NCBI GenBank assembly: GCA_049642725.1
Contig: JBARPC010000005.1
Coordinates: 1 to 47,507 of the forward strand
Source: Minisyncoccales bacterium
GTDB lineage: Bacteria; Patescibacteriota; Minisyncoccia; Minisyncoccales; JAGMDC01
Length of the DNA: 47,507 nt
Reading direction: 5' to 3'
The notes beneath the pieces are model-generated. The model did not search any database and was not told the DNA's origin. It saw only the letters and a list, made by a program, of their open reading frames with translations. Shown here in pieces: positions 11,717 through 45,291 of the stretch; position 1 is the stretch's first letter; each line of letters begins with the position of its first letter. Made by a program: the position numbers and the translations under genes.

Positions 11717-11831
11717 TTTTTTATCTGAGATTATTTTAAGTCTTTCTCCGACCTTTTATTTTCGGCGGCATAACACAAAGCTCGCCGCCAGCGATGGTTT
11801 TCACCACCCATACCCCTTTCGGGATATGACC

Positions 11832-11882
11832 CGGTAAGAGTGCTCTGACGACGAGCTTGATGTCTCTTACCGGGTTTTTTGT
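11832..11882 (+). terminator. Strong plus-strand intrinsic terminator (10-bp stem ccggtaagag/ctcttaccgg followed by tttttt)
   Basis: Seen directly. A GC hairpin ggcggc...gccgcc precedes it at 11763-11790. There is no plus-strand CDS upstream. Confidence 0.5.
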
Positions 11883-11949
11883 GCCATGCCTTATAGAATT
11901 ATAAGGGTTAGGCAATATTAAATTGTTATTTCATTATACCTGATTTTCT

Positions 11950-13269: not shown

Positions 13270-13391
13270 AGGTTTATTTTTTTAATTTCTTATTATTCGA
13301 CCTTTGGAACAAGGATGCCGCAACCCTCCTAGGGAGTCCAGACCCCATCAGTTGGTAAATTGTTTATAAGCTAAAATAGATTTAAACTTAT

Positions 13392-14918: not shown

Positions 14919-15298
14919 GGTTTTTTGTCGAACGAAGCAAGCCGGAGAGCTGTTTTTACTAAAGCCATCTGTTCCGGCGTTAGTTCTTCGTCCGAGTGTG
15001 TTAAGCGACCGCTAATTTCAACTTTATTTCCATATTTTGGGTGATGATGACGGAGCCATAATTGAAGAGCCTGAAAGTTCCGGTCGCGAATCAGGGAAAT
15101 TAGCTGAGATTCGCTCATATCTGTTATAAATGCTTCGCCTTCGGTAATAGCCGCATCAGCCTCCCTGGCAAATTTCTTACTTTCTCGCCAGCGGTAATAT
15201 GTGGTTCGTCCAACGCCAACCTTTTTGCAGGCAACCTGCACAATTGGCATTTCCTTTAGCACTACAATCATTGAATCTTTTATTTTATCTTTTTTCAT
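14915..15298 (-). CDS. Terminase small-subunit-like HTH protein
   Basis: HTH VACKKVGVGRTTYYRWRE. Sits directly upstream of and overlaps terL. Confidence 0.45.
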   Translation of the reverse strand: MKKDKIKDSMIVVLKEMPIVQVACKKVGVGRTTYYRWRESKKFAREADAAITEGEAFITDMSESQLISLIRDRNFQALQLWLRHHHPKYGNKVEISGRLTHSDEELTPEQMALVKTALRLASFDKKP

Positions 15299-16629: not shown

Positions 16630-16887
16630 GCTTTTAATTAGATTATTTATTCTTTATTTACCTCGACTACTGGTAAATATTCACCGCAAGAAACCATCGA
16701 CCAAAATTCTTTCCAGAGAAACAAAACGCCCGCCTAAAAGGAGAGCTCAAAAACAATATTTGTTTAAGCTATCTTTTTAAGCGGGCACGACCGAGGCGAA
16801 CCTCTTCGATATTTTTATTTATTGAATATCTTCTATCGGAGATGACTCCGAAATCCGTGGTACCTACGAAATGTCTCTAAAAAGAAC

Positions 16888-17382
16888 TTAACTTCTTACC
16901 GCTACTTTTATTATAAGAGTCCCATCTTCTATGTCAAGTGCTACCAATTCTCCATATCCTTCGGTGGCTTTATATCGTTCAAATCCTACGCGGCGATTAC
17001 GGGCCCGGACTGCTTCTTTTAAATTTTTATCAAACAGAATTTTAACCATTCTGTCTTTCGGAATATAAATCTTAAATTTTTTTCCAGAATTAATTGCATT
17101 TTTATATATTTCAGTATTTTCTTTATTTAAAGGGAATTTGCTTTCTATCATCAAACCTGAATCAGGGGAGAAGTTCATGTTTACATTTGATATCTGTGTA
17201 GATATCCTGGCACCTTGATGCATTTTTGAGTTGTATGGCAGTTCGGGATACCATTCTTTAGGTTTCCTAAAAACAGTCCCATGAAATTGGATATAATTAA
17301 CTACCATGTCTGCATATTCCGGTTTTTCAACAATCTCTATACTATCTTTTTTAATTTTTCCTTTACTTTTCTTTTTTAGCAT
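16888..17382 (-). CDS. Hypothetical protein (phage-associated)
   Basis: 164-aa ORF divergent from the excisionase-like gene. Confidence 0.4.
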   Translation of the reverse strand: MLKKKSKGKIKKDSIEIVEKPEYADMVVNYIQFHGTVFRKPKEWYPELPYNSKMHQGARISTQISNVNMNFSPDSGLMIESKFPLNKENTEIYKNAINSGKKFKIYIPKDRMVKILFDKNLKEAVRARNRRVGFERYKATEGYGELVALDIEDGTLIIKVAVRS

Positions 17383-20600: not shown

Positions 20601-20729
20601 AAATGGCTCAAAGATCGAAAAGGTAGAATTCTTATCAGTACTGACATAGATCATTACCAAAAAATCATCATCGCCCTAATCGAAACTGACAGAATTATGA
20701 AAGAAATTGATAAGATTATTAAATTTTAA
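17652..20729 (+). CDS. Type IIG restriction-modification enzyme (fused endonuclease and N6-adenine methyltransferase)
   Basis: 1025 aa. Motif I ILDPAVGTGTFL and motif IV VVLGNPPYSVSS (NPPY) are present, with a long N-terminal nuclease-like region and a C-terminal target-recognition region. Confidence 0.7.
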   Translation: MKKFFENYVQSISSKFSHKETSEMGYRGDFEILIKEIFNSIKVYRIGHDDKAEEGNKPDFVIFKNDVPILYIEAKDIGISLDKVEKSEQMARYYGYTNLVLTDYVEFRFYRNGLRYEEPIKIANYNIKNRTISPIPENYEHLAKSLINFTQSFKEPIKSGEHLAKIMGGRGQRIRDNVRQFFAVETDKNAGIFQVYKAIQDLLVHDLTQDSFSNMYAQTLVYGLFVARYYDETPETFSRQEARDLIPASNPFLGHFFDHIAGRNFEKRLAYIVDELCEVFSHANVKELMSQYFKKDLFGEVYKGLDPVIHFYEDFLKEYDSELRRKMGAYYTPLPVVHFIVRAVDELLKKDFGLARGLADTVKNNDGTHRVQILDPAVGTGTFLSSVIDAIHTNQLERGQKGGWVSYVHHDLLPRIYGFELMMAPYTIAHLKISMKLQETGFKYFNETREGKTRLKVYLTNSLEGSQPQKDLFAFDFGAAIADEAKEATKIKNEKPIMVVLGNPPYSVSSSNKGEWIQNLISDYKKNLGERKINLDDDYIKFIRFAEHFIEKNKSGIVAMITNNSFIDGITHRQMRKHLLETFDEIYILDLHGNSKKKEKALDGSKDENVFDIQQGVAISIFIRRVGEKKGLGKVYYSEIYGIREYKFKALDESNLKTIKWNNLGYSEPYYFFVPKDFMGKQEYEKGFSIIELFHEYNSGIQTKRDHTTISFTKERLKKVISDFQKLSEQEIRVNYNLPEDGRDWKIKLAKEDLLRDYRITGILYRPFDNRFTVYTGKSKGFIAYPRQKINKHIIEKNNLVLVTCRNQIFNTIALVTKKISDLRTYSNPGSLGTDYVFPLYLYLDDGSYIPNLKREIVNETEKIVGKVSPEDLFDYIYAVLYSPNYREKYKEFLKIDFPYIPYPKDKVSFKKFVALGAKLRSFHLLESPKVNQFITTYPITGSNVIEKIVYRNGKVFINAEQYFGNVPKIAWNFYIGGYQPTQKWLKDRKGRILISTDIDHYQKIIIALIETDRIMKEIDKIIKF

Positions 20730-30319: not shown

Positions 30320-30526
30320 ATGGCTGTAGAAAAAGCAATAGGTAGCTCTAGTTTAGTGGAGGTAGTAGACCGAATTCTTGACAAGGGTGTTGTTATTGAC
30401 GCTTGGGTAAGAGTTTCATTAGTTGGTATTGAATTGCTGGCAATTGAAGCCAGAGTGGTAGTTGCTTCGGTTGAAACTTGGTTGAAATATGCAGAAGCTG
30501 TCGGTCTTACTGCCACCGCTGCCTAA
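30320..30526 (+). CDS. gvpA: Gas vesicle structural protein GvpA
   Basis: 68 aa, [53 protein letters not shown], the hallmark GvpA sequence. Confidence 0.9.
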
Positions 30527-30698
30527 GAGCTAAGCTAAATTGTTTAAAGCATCCTTTATGTTCGGAGGAGTACCCGAATTCCTTCTCCAAATCCTTAAAA
30601 AGGGTTAAGAGTAGAAAGTATGCCTTAAACAATATTTTGAATATCAAAATTTGTTCTTGAAAAAAAAGAGTAAATTCTGGTATTTAAATTTAAGAGTT

Positions 30699-31241
30699 AT
30701 GTCTAATAATAATTTCAAAATTGCTCAAGACATCGTCGCTTCATACGAAGCTCGGATAAAGGTAATTCAGGCAACAGCTGAAGACACCCAAAAATTGCTT
30801 GAAGAATTTAGGGAAAAGAGAGAAAAGATGAGCCAGGAATTAAAAGGAGCTTTATCCCAACATGAATCTTTGAGAAAGAAAGATTTTGACAAAATGATGG
30901 AAGATATTTTAATTGCTCAAAAAACTCGAGAAGAAAATGTAAAACAAATGCTAGTTGATTTTCAAGATGAGGAAATGAAAGTTGTTGAGGGTTTAAGAGA
31001 AATGCTCAAAAAAGGAGAAAAATTAAGGCTCAAAGATTTTAAGGGTACTTTGGTTAAAATTAGAGAAGAACAAGAAATTCGAGAAAAAAAAACCCCCACT
31101 CGTATTGGCGAAGAATTAATTCGGATGAAATCAGAAGTTTGTGAGATGCTTGAAAATTTTAAGAGAGAGCGGGAAAAAGTGGCTTCGGAATGGAAAGAGA
31201 TGACGACCTCAGTGAATCAAAAACGAAATTTAAATAAATAA
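30699..31241 (+). CDS. Coiled-coil gas-vesicle-associated protein (paralogue of 31708..32226; alternative start at 30651)
   Basis: Charged heptad-rich sequence sharing RKKDFDKMMEDI / LKDFKGTLVKI motifs with the downstream paralogue. Confidence 0.5.
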   Translation: MSNNNFKIAQDIVASYEARIKVIQATAEDTQKLLEEFREKREKMSQELKGALSQHESLRKKDFDKMMEDILIAQKTREENVKQMLVDFQDEEMKVVEGLREMLKKGEKLRLKDFKGTLVKIREEQEIREKKTPTRIGEELIRMKSEVCEMLENFKREREKVASEWKEMTTSVNQKRNLNK

Positions 31242-31295: not shown

Positions 31296-31601
31296 ATGGC
31301 AAAAAAAGCATCAATTAAATACAAGATGATCACCTGTGCTTTCTGTAAAGGAAAAGGAATAGATCCTTTTGGAATTCCTTCAAAGTTGTCTAATTGCCAA
31401 GTGTGTTGGGGTAAAGGCAAAGTAGCCATTGCTGATATTCCTCATGAGACCTGCGGAGCTTGCGAGGGTTCAGGAATTTTTGAACATCATCGATTGCCTT
31501 GTTCGGTCTGCAAGGGGAAAGGAGTGGTTCCGAAAGACAGGAGGCAGGGATCGAAAGGAATGAATCCGGGCACGGGATTACCGGAAATCGGGAACTACTA
31601 A
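31296..31601 (+). CDS. DnaJ-type zinc-finger (CR-domain) protein
   Basis: Four CxxCxGxG repeats: CAFCKGKG, CQVCWGKG, CGACEGSG and CSVCKGKG. Confidence 0.6.
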   Translation: MAKKASIKYKMITCAFCKGKGIDPFGIPSKLSNCQVCWGKGKVAIADIPHETCGACEGSGIFEHHRLPCSVCKGKGVVPKDRRQGSKGMNPGTGLPEIGNY

Positions 31602-31707
31602 AAAAGTCGAAACTTAACATAAAATTAATTAAATTTTTGATTTTTAATTAATCTAATGTCTCATTAATTTTAGTCATTAGAATTAATTATTAGTCATTGT
31701 GAATAAT

Positions 31708-32226
31708 ATGGCTTACGCACAAGAAATGAAAAATTTAGCGGCCGAAATCAAAACCTCTCATCAAGACCGAACTCAATATATAGCGGACGTTAAAGATGCT
31801 ACTCATGAATTGATTGCTAAATTTCAAGGAGAATTGAAAGAAATGGCTAGAGATCTGAAAGATTTTCTGGCAAAAAGTGAAGATACAAGAAAGAAAGATT
31901 TTGATGGAATGATGAAAGGGATTCAAGTAAAGATTAAGGAAATTCAAGGCGATGTAAAAGATTTCTTAGCCGAAAGTGAAGAAAAAAGAATGGCCGATTT
32001 TAAAGTCACAATGAAAGATATTACTGATAGAGTTGATGATATAAAGAAAACCGCAAGGGGAATGCTTGGCAACTATAAAACAGAGAGAAAAGAGGCAGCT
32101 GGTTATTGGGGAAGATTGAAAGGCAAAGAGGCTGCAGTAGTCAAAGAAGCGGTAGTTGAAGAAGCGGTAGCTGAAGAAGCGGAAGAAGAAGCGCCAAAAA
32201 GAAAAAAAGGAAGAAGGAAGAAATAA
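31708..32226 (+). CDS. Coiled-coil gas-vesicle-associated protein with basic C-terminal tail (alternative GTG start at 31699)
   Basis: RKKDFDGMMKGI and VKDFLAESEEKRMADFK motifs are paralogous to 30699..31241. The sequence ends in an EEAEEEAPKRKKGRRKK tail. Confidence 0.5.
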   Translation: MAYAQEMKNLAAEIKTSHQDRTQYIADVKDATHELIAKFQGELKEMARDLKDFLAKSEDTRKKDFDGMMKGIQVKIKEIQGDVKDFLAESEEKRMADFKVTMKDITDRVDDIKKTARGMLGNYKTERKEAAGYWGRLKGKEAAVVKEAVVEEAVAEEAEEEAPKRKKGRRKK

Positions 32227-32306: not shown

Positions 32307-33245
32307 TTGAGAGATATGCCTTATTTATCATCAGAAGAAGAACAAGCTATTATTGAGCCAAAACCAATGGCTGATTTTGTTGAGACACCTTACATTAAGC
32401 GATTGACTCGCCGAGCTTTGAATTATCTCAAAGTTGGAATTCCAGTCCATTTTAGGGGTCCGACTGGAACCGGTAAAACCACTTTAGCTTTACATGTAGC
32501 AAGCAAAATTGGAAGACCGGCAGTCCTTTTGCATGGAGACGACGAATATAAAACTTCTGATTTAGTGGGAGGCGAACACGGTTATCGTTACCGCTATTTA
32601 AAAGACAATTTTATTTCCAGCGTTCTTAAGGTAGAGCAAGATATGTATAAGCGCTGGACGGACAACCGCTTAACATTAGCCTGTAAAAATGGTTTCACCA
32701 TGATTTATGATGAATTTACTCGTTCAAAACCAGAAGCCAATAATATTTTACTCTCCATTTTACAAGAAAAAGTGATGGACTTGCCGGCCCAAAGACAGGG
32801 AGAGGAAGCTCATTATTTGCAAGTTCATCCCAATTTCTGCGCTGTTTTTACCTCTAATCCCGAAGAGTACGCTGGCACTCATAAAGCCCAAGATGCTTTG
32901 AGAGATAGAATGGTTACTATGGACCTGGATTATTTTGACCGAAAAACCGAAGTAGCAATAACTCAAACAAAATCTGGCCTTTCTGAAGAAGATTCCGGGA
33001 AAATAGTTAATGTGGTCAGAGGAATGAGAACGCACAATCCCTGCGAATTTCCTCCTACTGTAAGAAGCTGCATTACTTTAGCTAAGGCTGTAGTAATTAA
33101 TAGAGGAAAGGTTTCGGTTGCCGATTCCGTTTTTCGAGAATTGGCTCAAGATGTATTAGTTTCTCAAACTACTCGAAGCCCTTGGTCACCAAAACGAAAA
33201 GAGATAAAAGAATTGGTTGAAGGATTAATTAATAAATATTGCTAA
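32307..33245 (+). CDS. gvpN: Gas vesicle AAA+ ATPase GvpN (MoxR/CbbQ-like)
   Basis: Walker A GPTGTGKTTLALHVA, Walker B MIYDEFTRSKPE, and the position after gvpA. Confidence 0.8.
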   Translation: MRDMPYLSSEEEQAIIEPKPMADFVETPYIKRLTRRALNYLKVGIPVHFRGPTGTGKTTLALHVASKIGRPAVLLHGDDEYKTSDLVGGEHGYRYRYLKDNFISSVLKVEQDMYKRWTDNRLTLACKNGFTMIYDEFTRSKPEANNILLSILQEKVMDLPAQRQGEEAHYLQVHPNFCAVFTSNPEEYAGTHKAQDALRDRMVTMDLDYFDRKTEVAITQTKSGLSEEDSGKIVNVVRGMRTHNPCEFPPTVRSCITLAKAVVINRGKVSVADSVFRELAQDVLVSQTTRSPWSPKRKEIKELVEGLINKYC

Positions 33246-33628: not shown

Positions 33629-33943
33629 ATGGGCATTATGACTACGAACGAGCTAAGAGTTTTATCTATTATTTGGGATTGGGGAGGAGAAGCATCGGTT
33701 GATATTATTGCCAGAGAAGTTGGTATTAGCATTGATTATGCAAGGCTTTTATGTGAAAGTTTGGGAAGAGAAGGCTGTATAGATTTTTTGGGCTCCAAAC
33801 TCTGCAAAATAAAAAGTAAAGGAAAGGTAATGGTAGCAAGTAAAAAGGGCCAGAATCCCCAAAAAATTGTTATCCCAGAAAGGCCGAGCAGATTCGGCTT
33901 AGGCAAAGATAAAAGAGGAAGAATTATTTTAAATTATGGTTAA
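33629..33943 (+). CDS. Winged-helix DNA-binding protein (putative regulator; paralogue of 37263..37709)
   Basis: LRVLSIIWDWGGEASVDIIAREVGISIDYARLLCESLGREGCIDF. Confidence 0.45.
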   Translation: MGIMTTNELRVLSIIWDWGGEASVDIIAREVGISIDYARLLCESLGREGCIDFLGSKLCKIKSKGKVMVASKKGQNPQKIVIPERPSRFGLGKDKRGRIILNYG

Positions 33944-34544
33944 AAAATATAAATTTAAAAAAACTGAAAAGGGAAAAACCGATCAGGCTAGAGAAGAATT
34001 GAAAAATCTGGAAGATTTGCCTTTGGTCGGTGGACTTCTCAAAGGATTGGGAAAATTCGTTGATCTGGCAGAAAGAGTAGAAGAAGCCGGAGGAGAGATT
34101 AAAAAGAAAGGAGAGATAAAAAGCGATGAGGGAAAGGTAAGGGGTATTTATGGATTTTCGATAAAAAGCGGAATCGGGGAGAGGCCGAAATTTCAAACTT
34201 TTGGCAATATAAAACCAATTAAAAAAGAAGCTAAAGCAAAACCGGAATTTAAAATCACGGAGACCAGAGAACCGATGGTGGATGTTTTTAATGAGAAAGA
34301 CCATGTTTTGATTGTAGCTGAGCTTCCTGGAGTAAGCGAAGACAGTATCAACTTGGATCTAAAAGGAGATATTTTGATCTTAGAAGCTGGAGATGAAAAA
34401 AGAAAGTATTCAAAAGAAATTTTGCTTCCCCGTTCGACTTCGCCTGGACGAAGTCCTGGCGGGCGGGCAGCGAAAGTTGATTTTGACGGGAGAGAAGAAA
34501 ACTTTAAGAATGGAGTACTTGAAGTAAAGATGAGAAAAATATGA
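33936..34544 (+). CDS. Hsp20/alpha-crystallin small heat-shock protein (GvpH-like position)
   Basis: [28 protein letters not shown]...ILLP...[12 protein letters not shown] matches an alpha-crystallin domain. Confidence 0.7.
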
Positions 34545-36697
34545 CAGCTATTTTCAAAATAGCAGAAGCAGAATCAAAAGATGTAGGGAGGGCTATTGTC
34601 CGAATTGACCCAAAAGATCTTTCCAAAGTTAAAGCTGAAATTGGAGATATAGTGGAAGTTAAAAGTGCCAAGGAAAAAGTTAAGAAAAAAACAGTAGCTA
34701 AATTGATGCCGGCTTTCGAAGAAATGCGCGGCAAGGGAATCTTACAAATGGATGGAATTTTAAGGGATAATATTAAGGTTGGTTTAAACGAGAAGATAAA
34801 GATTAAAAAGATAGAGACGAACCTCGCTTCAACTATAGTTTTAAAACCTTTAACTTCGGAAAGCTCTTTAAAAGAGACCGATTCAGAATACTTAGCTCAA
34901 ATATTGGATGGGGCACCAGTTATTACAGAGAATAAAATCCGGGCAACCTTTTTCGGATCAAAATTTCAAGACTTTTTAGTGGAAGATACTGATCCCGACG
35001 GGGCAGTTTTGATAAATTCCGAAACAACAATCAAAATTAAGGGGGCTGCCAAAGCAAAAAGAGGAGTAGGGATTACTTACGAGGATATTGGCGGCCTTAA
35101 AAAAGAAATGGGGAAAATTAGAGAAATGATTGAGCTTCCCTTGAAATATCCTGAGGTTTTTGAAAGATTAGGAATTGATGCTCCAAAGGGAGTATTGCTT
35201 CATGGTCCTCCGGGCTGCGGAAAAACTTTAATTGCCAGAGCTATTGCCAATGAAACTGACGCTTATTTTACCCATATTTCGGGACCGGAAATAATGGGTA
35301 AGTTTTATGGGGAATCCGAAGGAAGATTAAGAGAAGTATTTGAAACAGCCGAATCTAATGCTCCAGCTATTTTAGCAATAGATGAAATTGATGCTATTGC
35401 CCCTAAACGTGAAGATATGGGGGGAGAAAAACAGGTAGAAAGAAGAGTAGTGGCTCAACTTTTGGCTTTAATGGACGGATTAGAATCTCGAGGAGATTTA
35501 ATTGTAATCGGAATTACCAATATTCCTAATACTTTAGATCCTGCCTTAAGAAGACCGGGAAGATTTGATCGAGAAATTTCAATTCCTATTCCTGATAAAA
35601 ACGGCAGAAAAGAAATATTAGAAATTCATACCCGGGGAATGCCTCTAACTAAGAACTTTGATTTAGAGAAACTGGCTGAGATTACTCACGGTTTTGTAGG
35701 AGCAGATTTGGAGGCCCTAGCCAGAGAAGCGGCGATGTCGGCCCTGAGAGAGATTATGCCAGAGATTGAATTTGAAAAAGAATATATTCCTTATAAAAAA
35801 CTTTTGGGCATTGAAGTAACCATGGATCATTTCCGAGAGGCACTGAAAGAAGTTGAACCCTCGGCTTTAAGAGAAGTATTTACTGAGATTCCTAATGTCA
35901 GGTGGGAAGATGTCGGAGGGTTAGAGGACATAAAACAGACCCTCAAAGAAGCTATTGAATGGCCATTAAAATACGGAAAGCTCTTTGATCATTCAAAAAC
36001 CAGTCCCCCTAAAGGAATATTGCTTTCAGGGCCTCCGGGTACCGGAAAAACTTTAATAGCTAAAGCAGTAGCTTCTGAATGCGGAGTCAATTTTATTTCA
36101 GTTAAGGGCCCCCAACTTTTATCCCGTTGGGTTGGAGAAAGCGAAAAGGGAGTAAGAGAAGTTTTCAAAAAAGCAAAGCAATCCTCTCCCTGTATTGTCT
36201 TTTTTGATGAAATCGACAGTTTGGTTCCGGCTCGAAACCAATCTTCAGATTCCCATGTAACAGAACGGGTGGTTAGCCAATTTCTTACCGAACTTGACGG
36301 CATAGAAGAGCTTAAAGGAGTAGTAATTCTAGGAGCAACTAATCGATTGAATTTAATTGATTCTGCTTTACTGAGAGCCGGAAGATTCGATTTTCTCTTG
36401 GAAGTTCCAAAACCCGATGAAAAAACTAGGCTGAAAATATTCAAAATTCATACTCAAGGCAAGCCCTTGGCTCAAGATGTAGATTTTAAAATCCTAGGTA
36501 GGGAAACAGAGGGGCTTACCGGAGCTGATATTGAAACCATTTGTAAAAAAGCATCCATAATGGCAATTAGAGAGTTTGTGAATTCAAGCAACCCCAAAGG
36601 AAAGCTTTCGGCTTCCTACGTGGCAGGCCAAAACGAGAAAAATTTTAAAATTAAATTTAAATATTTTAAAGAAGCATTAAAGAATTTAAAGACATAA
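34541..36697 (+). CDS. Cdc48/VCP-like double-ring AAA+ ATPase
   Basis: N-domain plus D1 ([22 protein letters not shown]) and D2 ([22 protein letters not shown]), with second-region-of-homology motifs. Confidence 0.85.
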
Positions 36698-37717: not shown

Positions 37718-38761
37718 ATGAAAAAAGGAAAGAAGAAAATTAAACAATCGCAAGCTATGCCATCTCAAATTGGAAGAGGTTTAGATGTAGGGACTACTTT
37801 CATCTATTCAGCCCAGAAAATGGGTTCGGAAGTGAAATTTAATACTGAGCGAAACGCGTTCTTTGATATTGAGCGAAATGATTTCGTTGAAAACATATTA
37901 AAAAAATCCAATGTAAAATGCGCCCTAAAGGGAGATAAACTCTGTGTGATAGGAGAAAATGCGCTAAAATTTGCCAATGTTTTTGGCAAAGAAACGAGAC
38001 GTTCTTTAAAAAGCGGAGTAATTAGTCCCCAAGAAGAGGATGCTTTACCGATTCTAAATCTAATTATTGAAAATACTTTAGGTCCCCATCGCCATAAGGG
38101 CGAAACTATCTTTTATTCAGTTCCGGGCGCTCCGGTAGACGCTGATTTCAATGTAATTTACCATGAACAGATTTTAAGAAGAATGCTTCAGAATTTGGGA
38201 TATGAGCCAAAATCTATCAATGAGGGATTAGCAGTGATTTATTCTGAATTGGCTAATAATGATTTTACAGGGATGGGAATTTCTTTCGGCGGAGGAATGG
38301 CTAATGTTTGCCTGGCAGTAATGTCTATTCCAGTGTTTTCTTTCAGTATAGCCAAAGCAGGTGATTGGATAGATGCAGAAGTTGCGCGAGTAAGTAATGA
38401 AACTGGAAGCAAAATTACCGCAATTAAAGAATCCAGATTAGACCTTACGAAACCGGAAAATAGCTTAACTAAAATAGAGCAAGCTCTTTCTATTTATTAC
38501 AATCATTTAATCGAATATGTATTGAGTTGTGTTAAAAATGAAATTGAAAAGCAAAACAAAATGCCTTTATTAGAAAGCCCTATTTCTATTGTTATTTCTG
38601 GAGGAACAGCCAAGCCCAAAGGATTTTTAGAAAGATTTAAGACAGCCCTAAATAAAACTAATCTCCCCTTAAAAATCGGAGAAGTGAAACTGGCTTCCCA
38701 TCCTCTCCACACTGTAGCCAAAGGCGCGCTAATCGCAGCAATTGCTGATAAGGGAAAATGA
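37718..38761 (+). CDS. Actin-like ATPase (ASKHA fold; ParM/MamK/Hsp70-like)
   Basis: Phosphate-1 GLDVGTTFIY, connect/phosphate-2 GISFGGGMANVCLA, and adenosine VISGGTAK motifs. Confidence 0.55.
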   Translation: MKKGKKKIKQSQAMPSQIGRGLDVGTTFIYSAQKMGSEVKFNTERNAFFDIERNDFVENILKKSNVKCALKGDKLCVIGENALKFANVFGKETRRSLKSGVISPQEEDALPILNLIIENTLGPHRHKGETIFYSVPGAPVDADFNVIYHEQILRRMLQNLGYEPKSINEGLAVIYSELANNDFTGMGISFGGGMANVCLAVMSIPVFSFSIAKAGDWIDAEVARVSNETGSKITAIKESRLDLTKPENSLTKIEQALSIYYNHLIEYVLSCVKNEIEKQNKMPLLESPISIVISGGTAKPKGFLERFKTALNKTNLPLKIGEVKLASHPLHTVAKGALIAAIADKGK

Positions 38762-38765
38762 CATT

Positions 38766-39803
38766 ATGACAGAAGAAGGAAAATATATCTACTCCATAAT
38801 TAAAGAGAACAATGACCGAAGGTTTGATTGTATTGGGATAAATAATCGAGAGGTAAACATTGTTCACTACAAAGACATAGCAGCAGTGGTCTCAAGCAGT
38901 CCAATTATTAACTTTGATCGTTTAAACAAGAAAGAACTAACAAACCATGTTGCTACCCACCAAAGAGTAAATGAAGCAGTGATGAAAGAGTATGATGTTG
39001 TGCCTATGGCATTCGGAATTATTGCTCCCAGCGTCAATGAAGTGATGCGTATTTTAGAAAAAGCCTATCTTCAATTCAAAACAGCCTTTAAAAATATAAC
39101 CGGTAAAGCAGAATTTGCGGTTCAAGTATGGTGGAATCCAAAAAAACTTCTTGAAGAATTAGCTAACACCAATCCAGAAATCCGGAAATTAAAACAAACG
39201 GTGGTTTTGAAAGGAAGTATTTTAGGAATGCCAATGAAGTTGAAATTAGGAAAGTTAATACAAAAAGAAGCAGAAATTCAAAGACAAACTTTTATTAATG
39301 ATATTCATAAATCCCTAAGAAACTTATCCCTTGCTTCCACATCGAATAAATTAATTGATGATGAGATGATAGCCAACCTCTCTTTCTTAATAGAAAAAGC
39401 TAAAGAACTCGAGCTTGATAGAAAGATGCAAGAACTCGGAAAAAAATATGAGGGGAAATTAAAATTTAAATATATTGGGCCGATGCCTCCTTACAGTTTT
39501 GTAAGAATAAATTTAAACTTAGGCAATTTTGAAGTAGTTAATAGGGCAAGAAAACTTTTAGGATTAGAAGAAATAGCCACTCTTGATGAAATTAAAAAGG
39601 CTTATTATGTCCTTGCCCATCAATATCATCCGGATAAACATCAGGGTGACCCCCAAAAAGAAGAACAAATGAAAAAAATAGCCCAAGCCCATAGTATTTT
39701 GGAGAATTACTGCCAGAGTTATGATGATTTTGAAGGAAAAACCGAAGACCAAAAATATTCTTTTAAAGAAGGAGATGTTAAGGCCGCAATATTGATTCGT
39801 TAA
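38766..39803 (+). CDS. GvpF/L-family protein with a C-terminal J-domain
   Basis: N-terminal KYIYSIIKEN...VNIVHYKDIAAVVSS matches GvpF/L. C-terminal LDEIKKAYYVLAHQYHPDKHQGDPQKEEQMKKIAQAHSIL carries the HPD motif. Confidence 0.7.
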   Translation: MTEEGKYIYSIIKENNDRRFDCIGINNREVNIVHYKDIAAVVSSSPIINFDRLNKKELTNHVATHQRVNEAVMKEYDVVPMAFGIIAPSVNEVMRILEKAYLQFKTAFKNITGKAEFAVQVWWNPKKLLEELANTNPEIRKLKQTVVLKGSILGMPMKLKLGKLIQKEAEIQRQTFINDIHKSLRNLSLASTSNKLIDDEMIANLSFLIEKAKELELDRKMQELGKKYEGKLKFKYIGPMPPYSFVRINLNLGNFEVVNRARKLLGLEEIATLDEIKKAYYVLAHQYHPDKHQGDPQKEEQMKKIAQAHSILENYCQSYDDFEGKTEDQKYSFKEGDVKAAILIR

Positions 39804-39877: not shown

Positions 39878-40216
39878 ATGTCAGAAATTATTACTTTATT
39901 CCAAACTCTGTATATTCAAGTTATTACGCTAATGATACTGATTGATATCCTTTTGGGAATTACTGCCGCGGTTGTCAAAAAAGATTTTCTTTTTGCGAAG
40001 TTAGCTGATTTTATGAAAGGCCCGGTAATAGCCTATATTTTAGGTTTTGCTGTTTTAGGAATGGTGGCTCCAGTATTGCCAATGATAGGCACTATTGCCT
40101 TGGGACCATTAGTTCTTAAGTTTGCCTTTGTTTTGATTGTCTTGACTTTATTGGCTTCCATTTTTAGGAATTTAAAGAAACTGGGATTACCGTTGCCAGG
40201 AATTCTGGAAAAATAA
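39878..40216 (+). CDS. Small multi-TM membrane protein
   Basis: 112 aa with three predicted TM helices. Confidence 0.45.
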   Translation: MSEIITLFQTLYIQVITLMILIDILLGITAAVVKKDFLFAKLADFMKGPVIAYILGFAVLGMVAPVLPMIGTIALGPLVLKFAFVLIVLTLLASIFRNLKKLGLPLPGILEK

Positions 40217-40221
40217 GTATT

Positions 40222-40256
40222 GGACGTGTGGCGTCCGAATTGGACGTCGCACGTCC
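40222..40256. promoter_or_regulatory. Two tandem 15-bp palindromes (GGACGTGTGGCGTCC and GGACGTCGCACGTCC)
   Basis: Located directly upstream of the ATG at 40265. Confidence 0.4.
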
Positions 40257-40264
40257 ATAAGATT

Positions 40265-41029
40265 ATGATCGAAGCTCAAGGAAAATATCTTTATTGCGTT
40301 ATTAAAGAAAAGAGTCCTAAGAAATTTAATATTTTGGGGCAGGAGGGAAAAGAAGTTTATACAATTAATGAAAGGGATTTGGCAATTGCGGTGAGCGATA
40401 CATTAAAAACAGAATATTCGTTTATCAAAGAACACTTGACAGGGCATCAAAGAGTTATTGAAGAGGTGATGAAGGAAGGATACGATGTTTTACCGGTTCG
40501 TTTTGGAACAATAGCAAAGACAGCCGAAGACGTCAGAGAAAAAATATTAAAATCAAAAAGAAAAGAACTTTTAGAAACATTTCCAAAAGTGGAAGGTAGA
40601 GTAGAATTGGGTTTAAGGGCTTATTGGAAAGATATGCCGGGTATTTTTCAAGAAATAGTTAAAGAAAACCCTGAAATTCAAACAGCAAAAAAAGAAGCTC
40701 AGAAAAACCCATTCCAAATGAAAGTTGCTAGTGTAGGAGAAATAGTCCAAAAAGCGCTTGATGCCAAAAGAGAAAGAGAAGCTGAAAAGATACTTAATCC
40801 TTTAAAGAAATTAGCGGTAGATTTTAAAGAAAGAGAATTTCTGAGATCAAGCGATGTTATGAAAGATTCAATGATTTTAAGCAGTGCTTTTCTGGTATCA
40901 AAAGATAATGAGAAAGAATTTGATAAAAGAGTAGAGTCCTTTACCAAAAAATATGGGGAGAGAATGAAATTTATTTACATGGGTCCTATTCCTCCTTTTA
41001 ATTTCGTAGAATTGGTTTTAAACATATGA
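40265..41029 (+). CDS. GvpF/L-family gas vesicle protein
   Basis: MIEAQGKYLYCVIKE...VYTINERDLAIAVSD. The track ORF begins at 40220 but that stretch is palindromic. Confidence 0.7.
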   Translation: MIEAQGKYLYCVIKEKSPKKFNILGQEGKEVYTINERDLAIAVSDTLKTEYSFIKEHLTGHQRVIEEVMKEGYDVLPVRFGTIAKTAEDVREKILKSKRKELLETFPKVEGRVELGLRAYWKDMPGIFQEIVKENPEIQTAKKEAQKNPFQMKVASVGEIVQKALDAKREREAEKILNPLKKLAVDFKEREFLRSSDVMKDSMILSSAFLVSKDNEKEFDKRVESFTKKYGERMKFIYMGPIPPFNFVELVLNI

Positions 41030-42975
41030 CAAATCAATTCCTCATCAACCCTAAATTGAATTTTATTATTTTTGGAGGAAAGGGCGGCAGCGGAAAAACA
41101 ACTTCAGCCTGCGCGACTGCCCTGCATTTAAGCCAAAAACAGGGAGATAAAAAGATTTTAGTGGTTTCTACTGATCCAGCCCCTTCAGTAGGCGATAGTT
41201 TCGATGTAGAAGTCGGCAATAAAATTACTCACATCAAAGACAATGTCTGGGCTCAAGAATTGGATGCCAAAGAATTAATGGAAGATTTTCGGAAAAAAAA
41301 TTTAGAGACCATTAAGACATTAGCAGATAGAGGGACTTATCTTTCAAGAGTTGATATAGAAGAATTTTCTTCTCTTTCTCTGCCGGGAATGGATGAGATG
41401 ATGGCTGTTATAAAAATTGCGAATCTTTTGAAAACTGAAAAATATGACTTAATTATTCTTGATACCGCGCCTACCGGCCATACTAAAGCGCTTCTATCAT
41501 TACCTAAAAAAATGAAAACATGGTTGAGGGTAGCAGATTTAATGCTCGCAAAACATCGATTTATGATGAGGAGAATAAGAGGAAAGTATGTAAAAGATGA
41601 ATGCGATAAATTTTTAGAAGAAAGCAGGGCTGATATAGAAAGAGTAGAGGAACTTTTAAAAAATTCTGAAAATACTGAATTTGTTCCGGTAACTATTCCT
41701 GAACCAATGAGTATATTAGAAACAGAGGATTTGGTTGATGATTTGAAAGAAATGGACATTTCTGTGAAAAGTATAATCTGCAATCGGGTAATGGTTCCAG
41801 ACAAATGTGTATTTTGCAGATTAAGAGTCAAAGAAAAAGAAAAGCACATTAAGTTGATTGAGGAGAAATTTAGCCATTACAATCTTTTTAAAATACCTCT
41901 TTTTCCTTCAGAAGTTAGGGGCAATAGCTCTTTACAAGAATATGGCAGGGTTTTATTTGGCGAAAAGAAATTTGAGATTGCTCTTCCGAGAATTTTACCG
42001 AAATTTCCAGAAATTCCCCAGGGCAGAATGGCTGATTTTCTGAAAAAAGATTTAAATTTTGTTATTTGCGGAGGAAAGGGAGGGGTGGGAAAAACCTCGG
42101 TAGCGGCAGCTACTGCCATATCTTTCGCCAAGAAGTATAAGGATAAAAAAATTCTTATTACCACCACTGATCCGGCTCACGCTTTAAGTAATATCTTTGC
42201 CCAAGAGATTCCTTTCGGAGAAAAAGCAGTTCCAATTCAAGGAATAAAAAATTTAGATGGATTAGAAATAGATGCTCAAAAATTACTTCAAGATTTTAAA
42301 GAAGAATATAAAAAAGATATCCAAGGAGTATTTGAAAAATTTTTTACTGGAGGCGTGGATGTAGCTTTTGACCGAAGAGTAATGGAAGAATTATTGGATT
42401 TTTCTCCGCCAGGATTAGAAGAAATAATGGCTTTGGGAAAAATCACCGATTTGATGAAGGAGGGTAAATATGATATTTATGTTTTAGATTCAGCCGCTTC
42501 TGGACACTTGCTTCGATTTTTAGAACTTCCTGGCTTAATAAGGAAATGGCTTAAAAGCATCTTTAAAATACTTCTTAAATATAAAAATATAACTAGGGCC
42601 GTAGAAATTAAAATTCGACTTCTGGAATTATCTAAAAATATTAGGAAAATTCAAGAAACATTATTTGGATCTAAAAATACGGAGTTTATAATGCTCAGTA
42701 TTGCCGAAGAAATGGGAGTAAGAGAAATGGGGGATTTAGGCAAATGTTTAGAAAAGTTGAATGTCAATTTCAATTATATTGTTATGAATTACATAAATCC
42801 TTCTTCTCGCTCCTGCAGATTCTGTTTAGCCAAAAGAAATAATCAAGAAAAATATATTAAATTAGTAAAGAAAAAATATCCTTCAAAAAAACTGATATTA
42901 ATTCCTTTATTGCCGCATGATATTCGAGGAATAGATTCTTTAAATAAGTTTTCAAAAATAATATACGGCATATAA
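41026..42975 (+). CDS. ArsA/GET3-family ATPase, tandem double domain
   Basis: Two deviant Walker A motifs (GGKGGSGKTT and GGKGGVGKTS) plus DTAPTGHT and DSAASGHLLRFLELP. Confidence 0.8.
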   Translation: MTNQFLINPKLNFIIFGGKGGSGKTTSACATALHLSQKQGDKKILVVSTDPAPSVGDSFDVEVGNKITHIKDNVWAQELDAKELMEDFRKKNLETIKTLADRGTYLSRVDIEEFSSLSLPGMDEMMAVIKIANLLKTEKYDLIILDTAPTGHTKALLSLPKKMKTWLRVADLMLAKHRFMMRRIRGKYVKDECDKFLEESRADIERVEELLKNSENTEFVPVTIPEPMSILETEDLVDDLKEMDISVKSIICNRVMVPDKCVFCRLRVKEKEKHIKLIEEKFSHYNLFKIPLFPSEVRGNSSLQEYGRVLFGEKKFEIALPRILPKFPEIPQGRMADFLKKDLNFVICGGKGGVGKTSVAAATAISFAKKYKDKKILITTTDPAHALSNIFAQEIPFGEKAVPIQGIKNLDGLEIDAQKLLQDFKEEYKKDIQGVFEKFFTGGVDVAFDRRVMEELLDFSPPGLEEIMALGKITDLMKEGKYDIYVLDSAASGHLLRFLELPGLIRKWLKSIFKILLKYKNITRAVEIKIRLLELSKNIRKIQETLFGSKNTEFIMLSIAEEMGVREMGDLGKCLEKLNVNFNYIVMNYINPSSRSCRFCLAKRNNQEKYIKLVKKKYPSKKLILIPLLPHDIRGIDSLNKFSKIIYGI

Positions 42976-42979
42976 TTTT

Positions 42980-43249
42980 ATGGCATTTTTAATAGACGAT
43001 ATATTATTAGCTCCAGTTAAAGGTGTTGTTTGGATAGCTGAAAAAGTCCGGGATATTGCCCTGGAAGAGATAGAAGACACCCCGGAAAAACTTCAAAGAG
43101 AACTCCTTGATTTACAAATGGAATTAGAGGTAGAACAAATTACCGAAAAAGAATATCAAAAAAAAGAGAAAGATATTTTAGAAAGATTAGAATCTTTAAA
43201 AGAAGAAGATAAAAGTAAAAAGGTCGACTCAAGAAAATTAAACAAATAA
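42980..43249 (+). CDS. gvpG: Gas vesicle protein GvpG
   Basis: MAFLIDDILLAPVKG...ELLDLQMELE...EKEYQKKEKDILERLESLK matches the GvpG pattern. Confidence 0.6.
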   Translation: MAFLIDDILLAPVKGVVWIAEKVRDIALEEIEDTPEKLQRELLDLQMELEVEQITEKEYQKKEKDILERLESLKEEDKSKKVDSRKLNK

Positions 43250-43260
43250 CAAAAATTATT

Positions 43261-43530
43261 ATGGAGCCAAAAGAACTTATAGAAAGCGCGAAAAAACAAT
43301 TAGCCGATTTAACTGGTTTTAAAGAACCGGCCGGAATTGGATTTAAAAAAGAAAAAGAAGGGTGGGTAGTAACAGTTGAAATTGTTGAAAAAAAATCTAT
43401 TCCCGAAGGAATGGATATTATAGGAACTTATGAGGTTCAAATAGATGCCAAAGGAGACCTGCTTGGTTATGAAAAAACGGCAATGCGGAAAAAAATGGAT
43501 ACTGGGGCCTTTGAGAAAAAAGAAGAGTAA
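43261..43530 (+). CDS. gvpO: Gas vesicle protein GvpO
   Basis: LADLTG...GWVVTVEIVEKKSIPEGMDIIGTYEVQIDAKGDLLGYEKT resembles the haloarchaeal GvpO core. Confidence 0.55.
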   Translation: MEPKELIESAKKQLADLTGFKEPAGIGFKKEKEGWVVTVEIVEKKSIPEGMDIIGTYEVQIDAKGDLLGYEKTAMRKKMDTGAFEKKEE

Positions 43531-43537
43531 AGGTTAA

Positions 43538-44344
43538 TTGTTCAATTTTATGGATAAGGGATTATATCTTTATTGTATTAGACGGAAAAATGACTCTAAA
43601 TTTTCTGGAAAAGGAATTGGAGGAGAGGAGGTTTATGCTATTCCTTATCAGGATTTAGAGGCAGTAGTGAGTGAAGTTTCTTTAGAAGAATTTGGTTCGG
43701 AAGAAATTCAGAGGAAAGCCCAAGAAGATCTCAAATGGATTAAAGAAAAAGCTCAACTTCACGAGCAAGCCGTTGAAGAAGCTATGAAAAGAGGTGATGG
43801 AGTTTTGAGTATAATTCCAATGAAATTTGGTACCATTTTTAAGACCAAAGAAAAACTAGAAGAAACCTTAAAAAAGCATTACAGACAATTTCGGGAAAGT
43901 TTAGAAAGATTGAAAGGAAAGCAAGAATGGGCAGTAAAAGTATATTTAAATCGCAAAGCCTTCGAAGAGGAAGTAAAAAAAGTTAGCAAGGTAGTGCAGG
44001 AAAAGGAAAAAGAAATAGCCCAACTTCCTGAAGGGATTGCCTATTTTATGCAAAAGCAAATAGATGAAGCCGTTTCAAAAGAAGCAGATAAGGCCATTGA
44101 AAATTATACTGAGATTTTTTTTGAAACTCTTAAAAAATATGCAGAGGCAGAGACTAAAGGAAAAATTTTAGAAAAAGAATTGACCGGAAAGTCCTTGTCC
44201 ATGGTTTTAAATGCTATTTTTCTTGTTTCCGAAGAGAAATTAGAAGATTTTATAAAAGAAATTGATAAATTAAATAAAGATTATAAACCCAAAGGTTTTA
44301 ATTTTGAATACGCTGGCCCCTGGCCGCCGTATAACTTCATTTAA
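43538..44344 (+). CDS. GvpF/L-family gas vesicle protein
   Basis: GLYLYCIRRKND...VYAIPYQDLEAVVSEV with a long helical C-terminal half. Confidence 0.7.
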   Translation: MFNFMDKGLYLYCIRRKNDSKFSGKGIGGEEVYAIPYQDLEAVVSEVSLEEFGSEEIQRKAQEDLKWIKEKAQLHEQAVEEAMKRGDGVLSIIPMKFGTIFKTKEKLEETLKKHYRQFRESLERLKGKQEWAVKVYLNRKAFEEEVKKVSKVVQEKEKEIAQLPEGIAYFMQKQIDEAVSKEADKAIENYTEIFFETLKKYAEAETKGKILEKELTGKSLSMVLNAIFLVSEEKLEDFIKEIDKLNKDYKPKGFNFEYAGPWPPYNFI

Positions 44345-44348
44345 AGAT

Positions 44349-44954
44349 ATGAAACATCATTCAATTAAAACTCCAGAGACTGATACAAAAAGCCCCATGG
44401 GAAGAGAGCCGACACTCGAGAAAGTAACCCTCATTGATGCCTTAGACAAGGTTCTTGAAAAAGGAGCAATAATACAGGGAGATGTGGCAATAAGGGTAGC
44501 CGATGTAGACCTTATATATTTAGGATTAAGAGTTCTTTTAACCTCTATTTCCAAAGCTGAAGAAATGTCTGGCAAAAATTGGAGAAGCTTTGGAACCGAT
44601 TATCATCCTAGTCAAGAACCGATTAAAGAAGAGTTGCAATATCTGGCAAAATTAGAACAAGAAATAAGGAAAGCAGAAGCTAATATACCCAAACTTATTG
44701 ATGCTGGAAACCCCAAAAAAGCAGAGCAGGGGATAGCCAAATTAGTCCTAACTCTTGTTGAACTCCTTAGAAGACTAATGGAAAAAGAAGTAGTTCGTCG
44801 AATTTCAAGAGGATCTCTTTCTAATGTAGAAATTCAAAAGCTGGGACTGACCTTTAAAGCCATGGAAAAGAAAATGCAAGAACTAAAAGTAGTTTTTGGG
44901 ATTGAGGATGAGGAGTTAAATCTGGACCTGGGGCCGCTCGGAAATCTAATGTAA
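44349..44954 (+). CDS. GvpA-superfamily protein: GvpJ/M-like core with GvpK-like C-terminal region
   Basis: TLIDALDKVLEKGAIIQGDVAIRVADVDLIYLGLRVLLTSI, then ...KLVLTLVELLRRLMEKEVVRRISRGSLSNVEIQKLG...LNLDLGPLGNLM. I remember the DLGPLG region as a GvpK feature. Confidence 0.6.
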   Translation: MKHHSIKTPETDTKSPMGREPTLEKVTLIDALDKVLEKGAIIQGDVAIRVADVDLIYLGLRVLLTSISKAEEMSGKNWRSFGTDYHPSQEPIKEELQYLAKLEQEIRKAEANIPKLIDAGNPKKAEQGIAKLVLTLVELLRRLMEKEVVRRISRGSLSNVEIQKLGLTFKAMEKKMQELKVVFGIEDEELNLDLGPLGNLM

Positions 44955-44982: not shown

Positions 44983-45291
44983 ATGGCACAACAAATTGCT
45001 CACGGTATAGAAGCCACAAACTTAGCTGATATTTTGGAACGAGTTTTAGATAAAGGAATTGTTATTGCTGGCGACATTCAGATTAAGCTAGCCGATGTTG
45101 AATTGCTGACCATCAAAATTAGATTATTGATTGCTTCAGTAGATAAAGCCAAAGAAATGGGAATTAATTGGTGGGAGACTGATTCTTATTTGAGTAGCCA
45201 AGCAAGAGAGATAGAGTCAGAAAAGGAAAGAATAAAACTAGAGAAGAAAGTGGAAGAACTCGAGAAAAAGCTGAAACCTAAAGCCGAATAA
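44983..45291 (+). CDS. Small GvpA-superfamily protein (GvpM/S/K-like)
   Basis: LADILERVLDKGIVIAGDIQIKLADVELLTIKIRLLIASV. Confidence 0.6.
   Translation: MAQQIAHGIEATNLADILERVLDKGIVIAGDIQIKLADVELLTIKIRLLIASVDKAKEMGINWWETDSYLSSQAREIESEKERIKLEKKVEELEKKLKPKAE

Follow-up and report, generated by a model that had tools for sequence, protein, structure and literature searches.

A tandem Get3-like ATPase within the gas-vesicle gene cluster of a Minisyncoccales bacterium: a candidate accessory factor for vesicle biogenesis

The window analyzed here is the whole of a 47,507-nucleotide (nt) stretch of DNA from a Minisyncoccales bacterium (assembly GCA_049642725.1, contig JBARPC010000005.1, positions 1 to 47,507). 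It carries a cluster of gas-vesicle (gvp) genes of approximately 15 kb, all on the + strand, which extends from 30320 to about 45650. Inside this cluster an open reading frame (ORF) of 649 amino acids (aa), running from ATG to stop at 41026..42975 (+), encodes a tandem ATPase of the ArsA/Get3 family, and this gene is the subject of the present work. The stop of the upstream gvpF/L overlaps the start of the ATPase gene by 4 nt (ATGA), and the gap between the ATPase stop and the start of gvpG is also 4 nt; with such overlapping and 4-nt junctions, gvpF/L, the ATPase gene and gvpG are therefore packed as one operon. Translational coupling of the ATPase to gvpF is predicted from the sequence. An earlier sequence-only reading of this DNA had placed a tandem ArsA/GET3-like ATPase between gvpF/L and gvpG, and both the coordinates and the description that it gave are borne out by the ORF and by Pfam. 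The evidence presented throughout is of three types: sequence, predicted structure, and gene context. The features of the ATPase gene are as follows.

41026..42975 (+): tandem (pseudo-dimeric) Get3-like P-loop ATPase, 649 aa; PF02374 matched twice, TIGR00345, AlphaFold2 (AF2) model
41074..41103 (+): deviant Walker A of the N-half, GGKGGSGKTT, aa 17-26; G-K-G-G-x-G-K-T invariant in family alignments
41461..41484 (+): switch II of the N-half, DTAPTGHT, aa 146-153; DTAP[TSA]GHT in 74/74 full-length members
41485..41673 (+): helix 7-9 or TRC40-insert-like region of the N-half, aa 154-216; from length, predicted helices and Met enrichment
41806..41817 (+): CxxC of the N-half, C261-V-F-C264; aligns with the zinc-binding CxxC of Get3 and is conserved in the family
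42070..42099 (+): deviant Walker A of the C-half, GGKGGVGKTS, aa 349-358; family conservation
42487..42510 (+): switch II of the C-half, divergent, DSAASGHL, aa 488-495; D, G and H invariant
42511..42678 (+): helix 7-9 or TRC40-insert-like region of the C-half, aa 496-551, with an amphipathic WLKSIFKILLKY helix; from length and hydrophobic periodicity
42814..42825 (+): CxxC of the C-half, C597-R-F-C600; aligned internally with the CxxC of the N-half, C-x-F-C kept in the family

The Pfam hidden Markov model (HMM) ArsA_ATPase (PF02374) was matched twice, over aa 12-310 and from about aa 345 to 649 (E=7.4e-137), in agreement with the two P-loop domains that had been proposed. The protein is also pseudo-dimeric as suggested, with two homologous nucleotide-binding domains in one chain that share 35% identity (BLASTP 2e-61). 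In the window protein and in 74 relatives, each half keeps its Walker A motif, its switch I Asp (D50 and D382 in the window protein, equivalent to D57 of yeast Get3) and the D…GH core of switch II, and from these residues the nucleotide-binding sites of both halves look intact. The middle positions of switch II in the C-half differ by subclade (DTAPTGHL, DTSPTGHL and DSAASGHL) and are more variable than those of the N-half. The two CxxC motifs are conserved in essentially all full-length members. No Pfam match to an HSP20 or alpha-crystallin domain was found on the ATPase protein; in other lineages an alpha-crystallin domain is fused to Get3 homologues (PMC6593721, PMC10248533).

The helix 7-9 region, which extends from switch II to the next strand and is the counterpart of Get3 helices 7-9 with the TRC40-insert, spans 63 aa (N-half) and 56 aa (C-half), as compared to 67-72 aa in solved Get3 structures and to 49 and 36 aa in arsenical ArsA. 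In the N-half it includes a Met-rich helix with the family consensus MMMEKHRYMMR; methionine accounts for 5.6% of the residues in the helical subdomains versus 2.4% elsewhere, and the amphipathic, hydrophobic periodicity is conserved. The AF2 model is confident (pLDDT 84.5, pTM 0.84) and contains long predicted helices at aa 150-185 and 192-212. When the fold of the whole chain was compared, the best match was a closed-state tandem ArsA (9nbw; TMq 0.71, 22% identity), whereas the best match of each half was the Get3 of M. thermautotrophicus (TM 0.82-0.86, 33-34% identity). Hydrophobic helix 7-9 positions conserved in Get3 are kept at 15/21 sites in the N-half and 17/21 in the C-half, versus 14/21 and 11/21 in ArsA. 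In this comparison with the Get3 substrate groove, which had been proposed as a check, the residues lean toward Get3, but they set the protein apart from ArsA only weakly.

By sequence, the closest solved relative is ARSA1 of Chlamydomonas reinhardtii (5zme), a tandem Get3 homologue (E=2e-74). Other top solved relatives are the archaeal Get3 proteins 3zq6 (8e-51) and 3ug6, and ArsA of E. coli could be aligned only over aa 12-164. The CxxC of the N-half matches, residue for residue, that of 3zq6, 3ug6, 6so5 and 2woo (archaeal, fission-yeast and human Get3/TRC40). In Get3 this motif coordinates a zinc ion at the dimer interface (Farkas et al., PMC6593721).

The relation of the protein to arsenite pumps was examined with family models, diagnostic residues and gene neighborhoods. 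The protein fell short of both ArsA equivalog models, TIGR04291 with 212 bits against a cutoff of 650 and ArsA_halo (NF041417) with 267 bits against 800. The model TIGR00345 (GET3_arsA_TRC40) was passed by the whole protein (448 bits), by the N-half (242 bits) and by the C-half (212 bits) against a cutoff of 135, although this model covers ArsA as well and a pass alone cannot separate Get3 from ArsA. With a genuine Klebsiella ArsA from an arsRDABC operon (L086), which has C113, C172 and C422, as the reference, the positions equivalent to these metalloid-binding cysteines were found to be non-Cys in the window protein and in the aligned relatives; at the equivalents of C113 and C422, all 74 full-length relatives carry the Get3-type PG[ML]DE. 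A tblastn search (E<1e-3) for ArsR, ArsD, ArsB and ArsC, in which Acr3 was not a query, gave no match in the window or in 85 related loci (L001-L085), and Pfam scans of 50 ORFs of the window returned no arsenic-related, ArsB/Acr3-type or transporter families. The cysteine triad and the ars genes, which the sequence-only reading had named as the marks of an ordinary pump subunit, are thus both absent.

The halves of the ATPase are 23-26% identical to genuine ArsA halves versus 32-35% to archaeal Get3. In a rough neighbor-joining tree of half-domains, two sister clades are formed by the N-halves and the C-halves of the family, and the halves of ArsA pair up separately from both. The sister relationship of the two sets of halves points to one old duplication, and as they group apart from the ArsA halves, the tandem fusion looks independent of that of ArsA, for which the tree is only indicative.

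A scan of one genome per species yielded at least 533 confirmed loci with relatives of the ATPase, and the taxonomic spread was read from the best 80 of these. Bacterial carriers in this set belong to several lineages of the candidate phyla radiation (CPR), Chloroflexota, Desulfobacterota, anammox Planctomycetota, Actinomycetota, Bacillota (including the cultured Marinisporobacter balticus DSM 102940, locus L048), Acidobacteriota and Zixibacteria; archaeal carriers are Nitrosotalea, Methanosarcinales, Altiarchaeota and Nanoarchaeota. Homologues with 68%, 53% and 53% identity are all located in gvp clusters, where they adjoin GvpG and a fusion of GvpF with a J-domain. In species-representative loci with long flanks (at least 8 kb, n=59), two or more kinds of gvp gene were present in 54, and a Gvp-family ORF was found within 300 nt of the ATPase gene in 70 of 81 loci. 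The placement of the ATPase gene among gvp genes far exceeds what chance would produce and is repeated in dozens of unrelated lineages. Co-occurrence with gvpA or other gvp genes in other genomes, which had been put forward as a check, was therefore found across phyla, and a dedicated gas-vesicle role is well supported.

Direct neighbors of the ATPase in the 81 loci were GvpG (29), GvpF/L (21), Hsp20/GvpH (19) and GvpO (14), and the gaps to GvpG were often of 0-6 nt or were overlaps. The GvpG count was obtained with iterated HMMs; a simple tblastn, which under-detects this protein, found it in only 9/80. A single fixed partner gene was considered and rejected, as none is always adjacent, and since even the commonest neighbor adjoins the ATPase in just 29 of 81 loci, adjacency singles out no one partner. 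Chaperone-type genes are frequent in the 59 long-flank loci, with Hsp20/GvpH in 46, CDC48 in 37, a J-domain in 36 and Hsp70 in 28, and GvpF-J fusions are present in 41 of the 81 related loci. On one Desulfobacteraceae contig (JAUVVL010000002.1; L028 and L071), two paralogous tandem Get3-like genes lie about 10 kb apart near gvp genes. A phage-borne origin of the ATPase was also considered, with recombinase, terminase-like and ParB-methylase genes lying near the cluster both in the window (10.8-17.4 kb) and in L001, and was rejected, as a scan of viral contigs contained no relatives. Taken together, these results make it highly probable that the protein is Get3-like, is dedicated to gas vesicles and has no part in arsenic transport.

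The remaining genes of the cluster, all on the same strand, are listed below.

30320-30526 (+): gvpA, major shell protein, 68 aa, candidate client; canonical GvpA sequence
30651-31241 and 31699-32226 (+): two coiled-coil/amphipathic proteins
31296-31601 (+): small DnaJ-type zinc-finger protein with CXXCXGXG repeats; similar proteins in 20/59 long-flank loci
32307-33245 (+): GvpN-like AAA_5 ATPase; PF07728, E=4.6e-17
33936-34544 (+): GvpH/Hsp20-like protein of the alpha-crystallin type; PF05455, E=1.4e-5, and ArsA_HSP20 PF17886, E=2e-5
34541-36697 (+): double AAA+ ATPase of the CDC48/p97 type; CDC48_N and two AAA domains
37718-38761 (+): volactin, actin family; PF25216, E=1.7e-89
38742-39803 (+): GvpL/F fused to a C-terminal J-domain; PF06386, E=1.4e-60, and PF00226 DnaJ, E=5.6e-16
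39878-40216 (+): holin-like multi-pass membrane protein, 112 aa; weak PF05105 match
40220-41029 (+): gvpF/L; PF06386, E=5e-60
42980-43249 (+): gvpG, with an N-terminal hydrophobic helix; PF05120, E=5e-18, and hydropathy
43261-43530 (+): GvpO
43538-44344 (+): GvpF/L
44304-44954 (+): fusion of a GvpJ-like protein and GvpK, candidate client; PF00741, PF05121 and hydropathy
44983-45291 (+): second GvpA-family protein, GvpJ/M-like, candidate client; PF00741 and hydropathy

The GvpH/Hsp20-like protein at 33936-34544 scored 24.5 bits with the ArsA_HSP20 model, for which the cutoff is 22.5. Strong hydrophobicity was found in GvpA (aa 24-42), in the GvpJ-type proteins and in the N-terminal helix of GvpG, and in a hydropathy scan the GvpA segment ranks as the most hydrophobic soluble-protein segment of the cluster. 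It had been claimed that GvpA, GvpJ, GvpK and GvpM are all extremely hydrophobic; this does not hold for GvpK, as it is the J part that supplies the hydrophobic segment of the GvpJ-GvpK fusion, and GvpK has been suggested to be fully soluble (PMC11445434). The same fusion was seen in loci L001 and L002. The TTG listed as its start in the window lies inside the last part of the gvpF before it, and the true start may be located further downstream. A promoter and terminator scan of the cluster gave no promoter-like sites above the shuffled expectation.

Several further genes of the cluster deserve mention. Volactin recurs in L001 as well as in 6 of the 59 long-flank loci, and hints at a cytoskeletal link to vesicle positioning. 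The J-domain carried by GvpL/F would recruit Hsp70 to whatever GvpF binds, and many clusters encode Hsp70. The membrane protein encoded between two gvpF genes (39878-40216) is unexpected in a gas-vesicle operon; its counterpart in L001 is a 66-aa LiaI/LiaF-like membrane protein located between volactin and gvpF.

A complete gas-vesicle gene cluster is present on a contig of Minisyncoccales (CPR/Patescibacteria), which are ultrasmall bacteria. The order belongs to the phylum Minisyncoccota, which is proposed for Patescibacteria/CPR (PMC12281837). Similar gvp clusters were found in metagenome-assembled genomes of Falkowbacteria and Doudnabacteria and in one Patescibacteria single-cell genome, and close homologues of the ATPase are also named from Gottesman-, Roizman- and Nealsonbacteria. 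The literature searched contained no papers that link CPR bacteria with gas vesicles. Elsewhere on the contig, a block of higher GC content at 10808-17382 (-) encodes a serine recombinase, a 508-aa protein without a Pfam match, and a fusion of ParB_N with a DNA methylase, and is probably a mobile element or a prophage remnant; comparable recombinase, terminase-like and ParB-methylase genes adjoin the gvp cluster in L001 and L002. The gene at 17652-20729 encodes a Type ISP restriction-modification enzyme, a single chain of 1025 aa with Type_ISP_C and N6 methylase domains.

One possible explanation for the presence of such a protein in the cluster, to which we assign about even chances, is that the gene encodes a fused, pseudo-dimeric ATPase of the Get3/TRC40 branch that serves as an accessory factor of gas-vesicle biogenesis and handles hydrophobic Gvp proteins. 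On the grounds of homology and gene context, a role as a holdase or targeting factor for shell proteins is plausible and is the best available explanation, though one that could equally well turn out either way. By analogy to Get3, ATP binding would close the two halves upon each other, and in the closed state the amphipathic, Met-rich helices of both helical subdomains would form one hydrophobic groove capable of shielding a hydrophobic segment of a Gvp protein. The likeliest clients would be the GvpA-family shell proteins (GvpA, GvpJ/M), with the N-terminal hydrophobic helix of GvpG as an alternative. ATP hydrolysis, possibly triggered by GvpG or GvpF/L at the nascent vesicle, would then release the client for assembly. 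As in Get3, zinc is probably bound by the four conserved cysteines of the two CxxC motifs, at the hinge that joins the two halves. The gene context further suggests that the ATPase would act within a chaperone network encoded by the cluster, which would comprise the GvpF-J fusion, Hsp20/GvpH, CDC48 and, in related clusters, Hsp70.

Several points weigh against this proposal. In the assembled shell the hydrophobic element of GvpA is a beta-hairpin and not a transmembrane helix, and the hydropathy scan revealed no classical tail-anchored protein in the cluster. The contrast with ArsA at the groove positions is weak, especially in the N-half (15/21 versus 14/21), and the helix 7-9 regions, at 63 and 56 aa, are shorter than those of bona fide Get3. 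Moreover, 5 of the 59 long-flank loci are without gvp genes. Even among these, chaperone-type genes accompany the ATPase in two cases, which speaks for the chaperone context: in L020:3265-7801 the ATPase is followed by a DUF2760 gene and two Hsp70-like genes (the first identified by Pfam, the second assumed from its size), and in L060:5129-5524 a DnaJ-type zinc-finger protein precedes it. Vesicles are formed in E. coli from the B. megaterium operon GvpA2RNFGLSKJTU, which has no ATPase of this kind, and GvpF and GvpG have already been proposed as chaperones of GvpA, with GvpN as the proposed energy source (PMC11445434). As model operons make vesicles without the ATPase, any role that it plays is therefore accessory or redundant.

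A more specific form of the proposal, which is tentative and which we consider rather doubtful, is that of a targeting pathway of the Get3 type which would deliver to a protein shell and not to a lipid membrane. Newly made proteins of the GvpA family would be captured by the ATPase at their hydrophobic segment, and might be passed on to it by an Hsp70 that the J-domain fused to GvpF recruits, echoing the eukaryotic relay from Hsp70 to Get3. Docking on vesicle-bound GvpG or GvpF/L would follow, and ATP hydrolysis would release the subunit into the growing gas-facing wall. The four-cysteine metal site would act in this pathway as a hinge, perhaps as a redox gate.

Other scenarios have to be weighed against a role in handling shell proteins. 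The protein may be a general Get3-like chaperone, possibly activated by stress or redox state, which works with Hsp70 and J-proteins on many clients and has no specificity for the shell; it would travel with gvp clusters because these are rich in chaperones. Get3 itself is known to act as an ATP-independent holdase. Members of the family occur without gvp genes, next to DUF2760 and Hsp70-like genes in L020 and to a DnaJ zinc-finger gene in L060, and the Myxococcus member is not gvp-linked (Castillo & Saier, PMC2963123). A general chaperone role has also been suggested for bacterial homologues with a TRC40-insert (Farkas et al., PMC6593721). However, more than 90% of the long-flank loci are gvp-linked across distant phyla, and in the 70 of 81 loci with an adjacent Gvp gene the frames are often overlapping or nearly so; such tight and repeated operon membership is not expected of a general factor, and the small genomes of CPR bacteria would be unlikely to retain a dispensable one within an operon. 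We regard this scenario as unlikely.

Also to be considered is a nucleotide-dependent switch of assembly or a positioning ATPase, similar to the SIMIBI dimers MinD, ParA and FlhG, which would control the site or the timing of vesicle nucleation or growth by ATP-dependent binding to GvpG, GvpF or GvpO and would hold no client. The SIMIBI fold with its deviant Walker A is in line with such a function, as are the direct neighbors, which vary yet stay of the Gvp type (29 GvpG, 21 GvpF/L and 14 GvpO), and the presence of a cytoskeletal gene, volactin, in the same cluster. That assembly in model systems needs no such factor would fit a regulatory role as well (PMC11445434). On the other hand, the features that distinguish the protein from ArsA are those of the client-binding subdomain of Get3, namely the long, Met-rich amphipathic helices 7-9, together with the CxxC hinge, and neither a MinD-type membrane-targeting helix nor ParA-type DNA-binding features were seen, for which no specific test was made. 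A switch of this kind is quite unlikely in our view.

A further suggestion, not mutually exclusive with any of the others, is that the four cysteines form a redox- or oxygen-sensitive metal site, with zinc or with an iron-sulfur cluster as in relatives of the Nbp35/ApbC type, and that the protein is a sensor which couples vesicle biogenesis to the redox state. Yeast Get3 is activated oxidatively through its cysteines. The CxxC is kept in both halves of the window protein although a covalent tandem needs none in order to dimerize, and other tandem forms (ArsA, ARSA1 and the cyanobacterial Group 7) have lost it (PMC6593721). In addition, the carriers are mostly anaerobic lineages and the oxygenic cyanobacteria are without the motif, which is a correlation only. 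As the motif aligns with the structural zinc site of Get3, a purely structural hinge is the simpler reading, and a sensory function appears improbable. Finally, that an ordinary ArsA arsenite-pump subunit entered the gvp operon by chance is hardly conceivable and was rejected: it has on its side the NCBI name "ArsA family ATPase", the Pfam family name ArsA_ATPase and a whole-chain fold match that is best with ArsA since both are tandem chains, and against it the failure of both equivalog models, the lack of the three metalloid cysteines and of ars genes in the window and the 85 loci, the low identity to the ArsA halves, and a gvp synteny kept across phyla and domains.

The role preferred here, that of a factor which handles hydrophobic shell proteins, bears on an open problem, namely how the aggregation-prone and very hydrophobic GvpA is kept soluble and is inserted into the growing vesicle (PMC11445434). 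Poor assembly in foreign hosts restricts the use of gas vesicles as ultrasound reporters. An ATPase that is conserved in the gvp clusters of many phyla yet is absent from the model operons is a candidate helper which can be tested by mutation. Were the proposal true, it would also give a likely function to the orphan class of tandem, CxxC-containing prokaryotic Get3 homologues, which has been flagged as unique but is uncharacterized (PMC6593721); and were shell targeting in particular true, the ATPase would be a missing helper that could be transferred to foreign hosts for the production of gas vesicles. These prospects are tempered by the fact that the presence of the ATPase in gvp operons has been published since 2010 (PMC2963123).

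Among known systems, ArsA (E. coli R773, 1f48; L. ferriphilum, 9nbw; Klebsiella, L086) shares with the window protein the tandem, pseudo-dimeric organization and the fold, at 22-26% identity. The window protein differs from it in that it is without the Cys113/172/422 site, has longer helix 7-9 regions, contains the CxxC motifs and has no ars neighbors. The archaeal Get3 proteins (M. thermautotrophicus, 3zq6; M. jannaschii, 3ug6) are 32-35% identical to its halves and have in common with it the Walker A, switch I and switch II motifs, PGxDE, C-x-F-C and the C-terminal "PL…E.(R/K)G" loop. They are, however, single-domain proteins that form zinc-bridged homodimers or tetramers, whereas the window protein is a covalent tandem whose halves have diverged; their helix 7-9 region is of 70-72 aa, as compared to 63 and 56 aa; and the switch II of the C-half is variable in the window protein. 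Furthermore, Get3 binds tail-anchored membrane proteins, and the operon in the window encodes no tail-anchored client. ARSA1 of Chlamydomonas is likewise a tandem of the Get3 type with TRC40-insert-like regions. Unlike the window protein, ARSA1 is without CxxC, is eukaryotic (from chloroplast-bearing lineages) and is unrelated to gas vesicles; whole-chain superposition of the two is poor (root-mean-square deviation of about 16 Å), probably owing to another conformation.

Homologues of ArsA in gvp operons are not new. In 2010, Castillo & Saier described ArsA homologues with two domains and a length of about 637 aa, encoded together with gvpFGJKLMNOW and hsp20 in operons of cyanobacteria, Chlorobi/Bacteroidetes, an acidobacterium and a deltaproteobacterium; clusters 4 and 6 of that study contain, for example, proteins of Anabaena/Nostoc, Pelodictyon, Polaribacter and an acidobacterium (PMC2963123). 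They found neither arsR nor the ArsA cysteines, and proposed that the ATPase "energizes" some step of biogenesis; no connection to Get3 was made (PMC2963123). The protein described here resembles these homologues in its two domains, in its length of about 640 aa, in its location in a gvp operon and in the lack of ars genes and ArsA cysteines. It differs from them in that it comes from the CPR, and its clade includes many more phyla as well as archaea. In 2017, ArsA was reported to co-evolve with gvp genes in cyanobacteria (PMC5464585). On a plasmid of Nostoc sphaeroides gvpA…GvpL/F is followed first by an ArsA-family ATPase and next by an AAA ATPase. This Nostoc protein is similar to that of the window in sequence (32% identity), in its helix 7-9 insertions and in having GvpL/F directly upstream; the Nostoc and cyanobacterial ATPases differ in that they have neither CxxC motif and lack part of the C-terminal region.

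The classification of Get3 homologues by Farkas, De Laurentiis & Schwappach in 2019 offers a further parallel. Their Group 7 consists of cyanobacterial tandem homologues with TRC40-inserts and no CxxC, and Group 8 of 17 sequences, from Myxococcales and some Proteobacteria, that are tandem and have a TRC40-insert in both halves as well as CxxC (PMC6593721). Group 8 has no alpha-crystallin domain and was described as "unique… in all domains of life", with a function that is "currently unclear"; Get1/2/4-binding residues are listed as absent from it (PMC6593721). The tandem domains, a TRC40-insert-like region in both halves (seen as insertions relative to ArsA), the CxxC and the lack of an alpha-crystallin domain were all found in the window protein, which would thus belong to the Group 8 class, an assignment made by shared features. 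Group 8 was published without any mention of gas vesicles, whereas here the class is mostly gvp-linked and spread far more widely. No papers that join "gas vesicle" with "Get3" were present in the literature searched. The components are thus already known, the ArsA homologues of gvp operons since 2010 and the tandem, CxxC-containing bacterial Get3 homologues since 2019; what is new is the link between these two literatures, a wider distribution that includes CPR bacteria and archaea, and the chaperone-rich context in which the ATPase is found.

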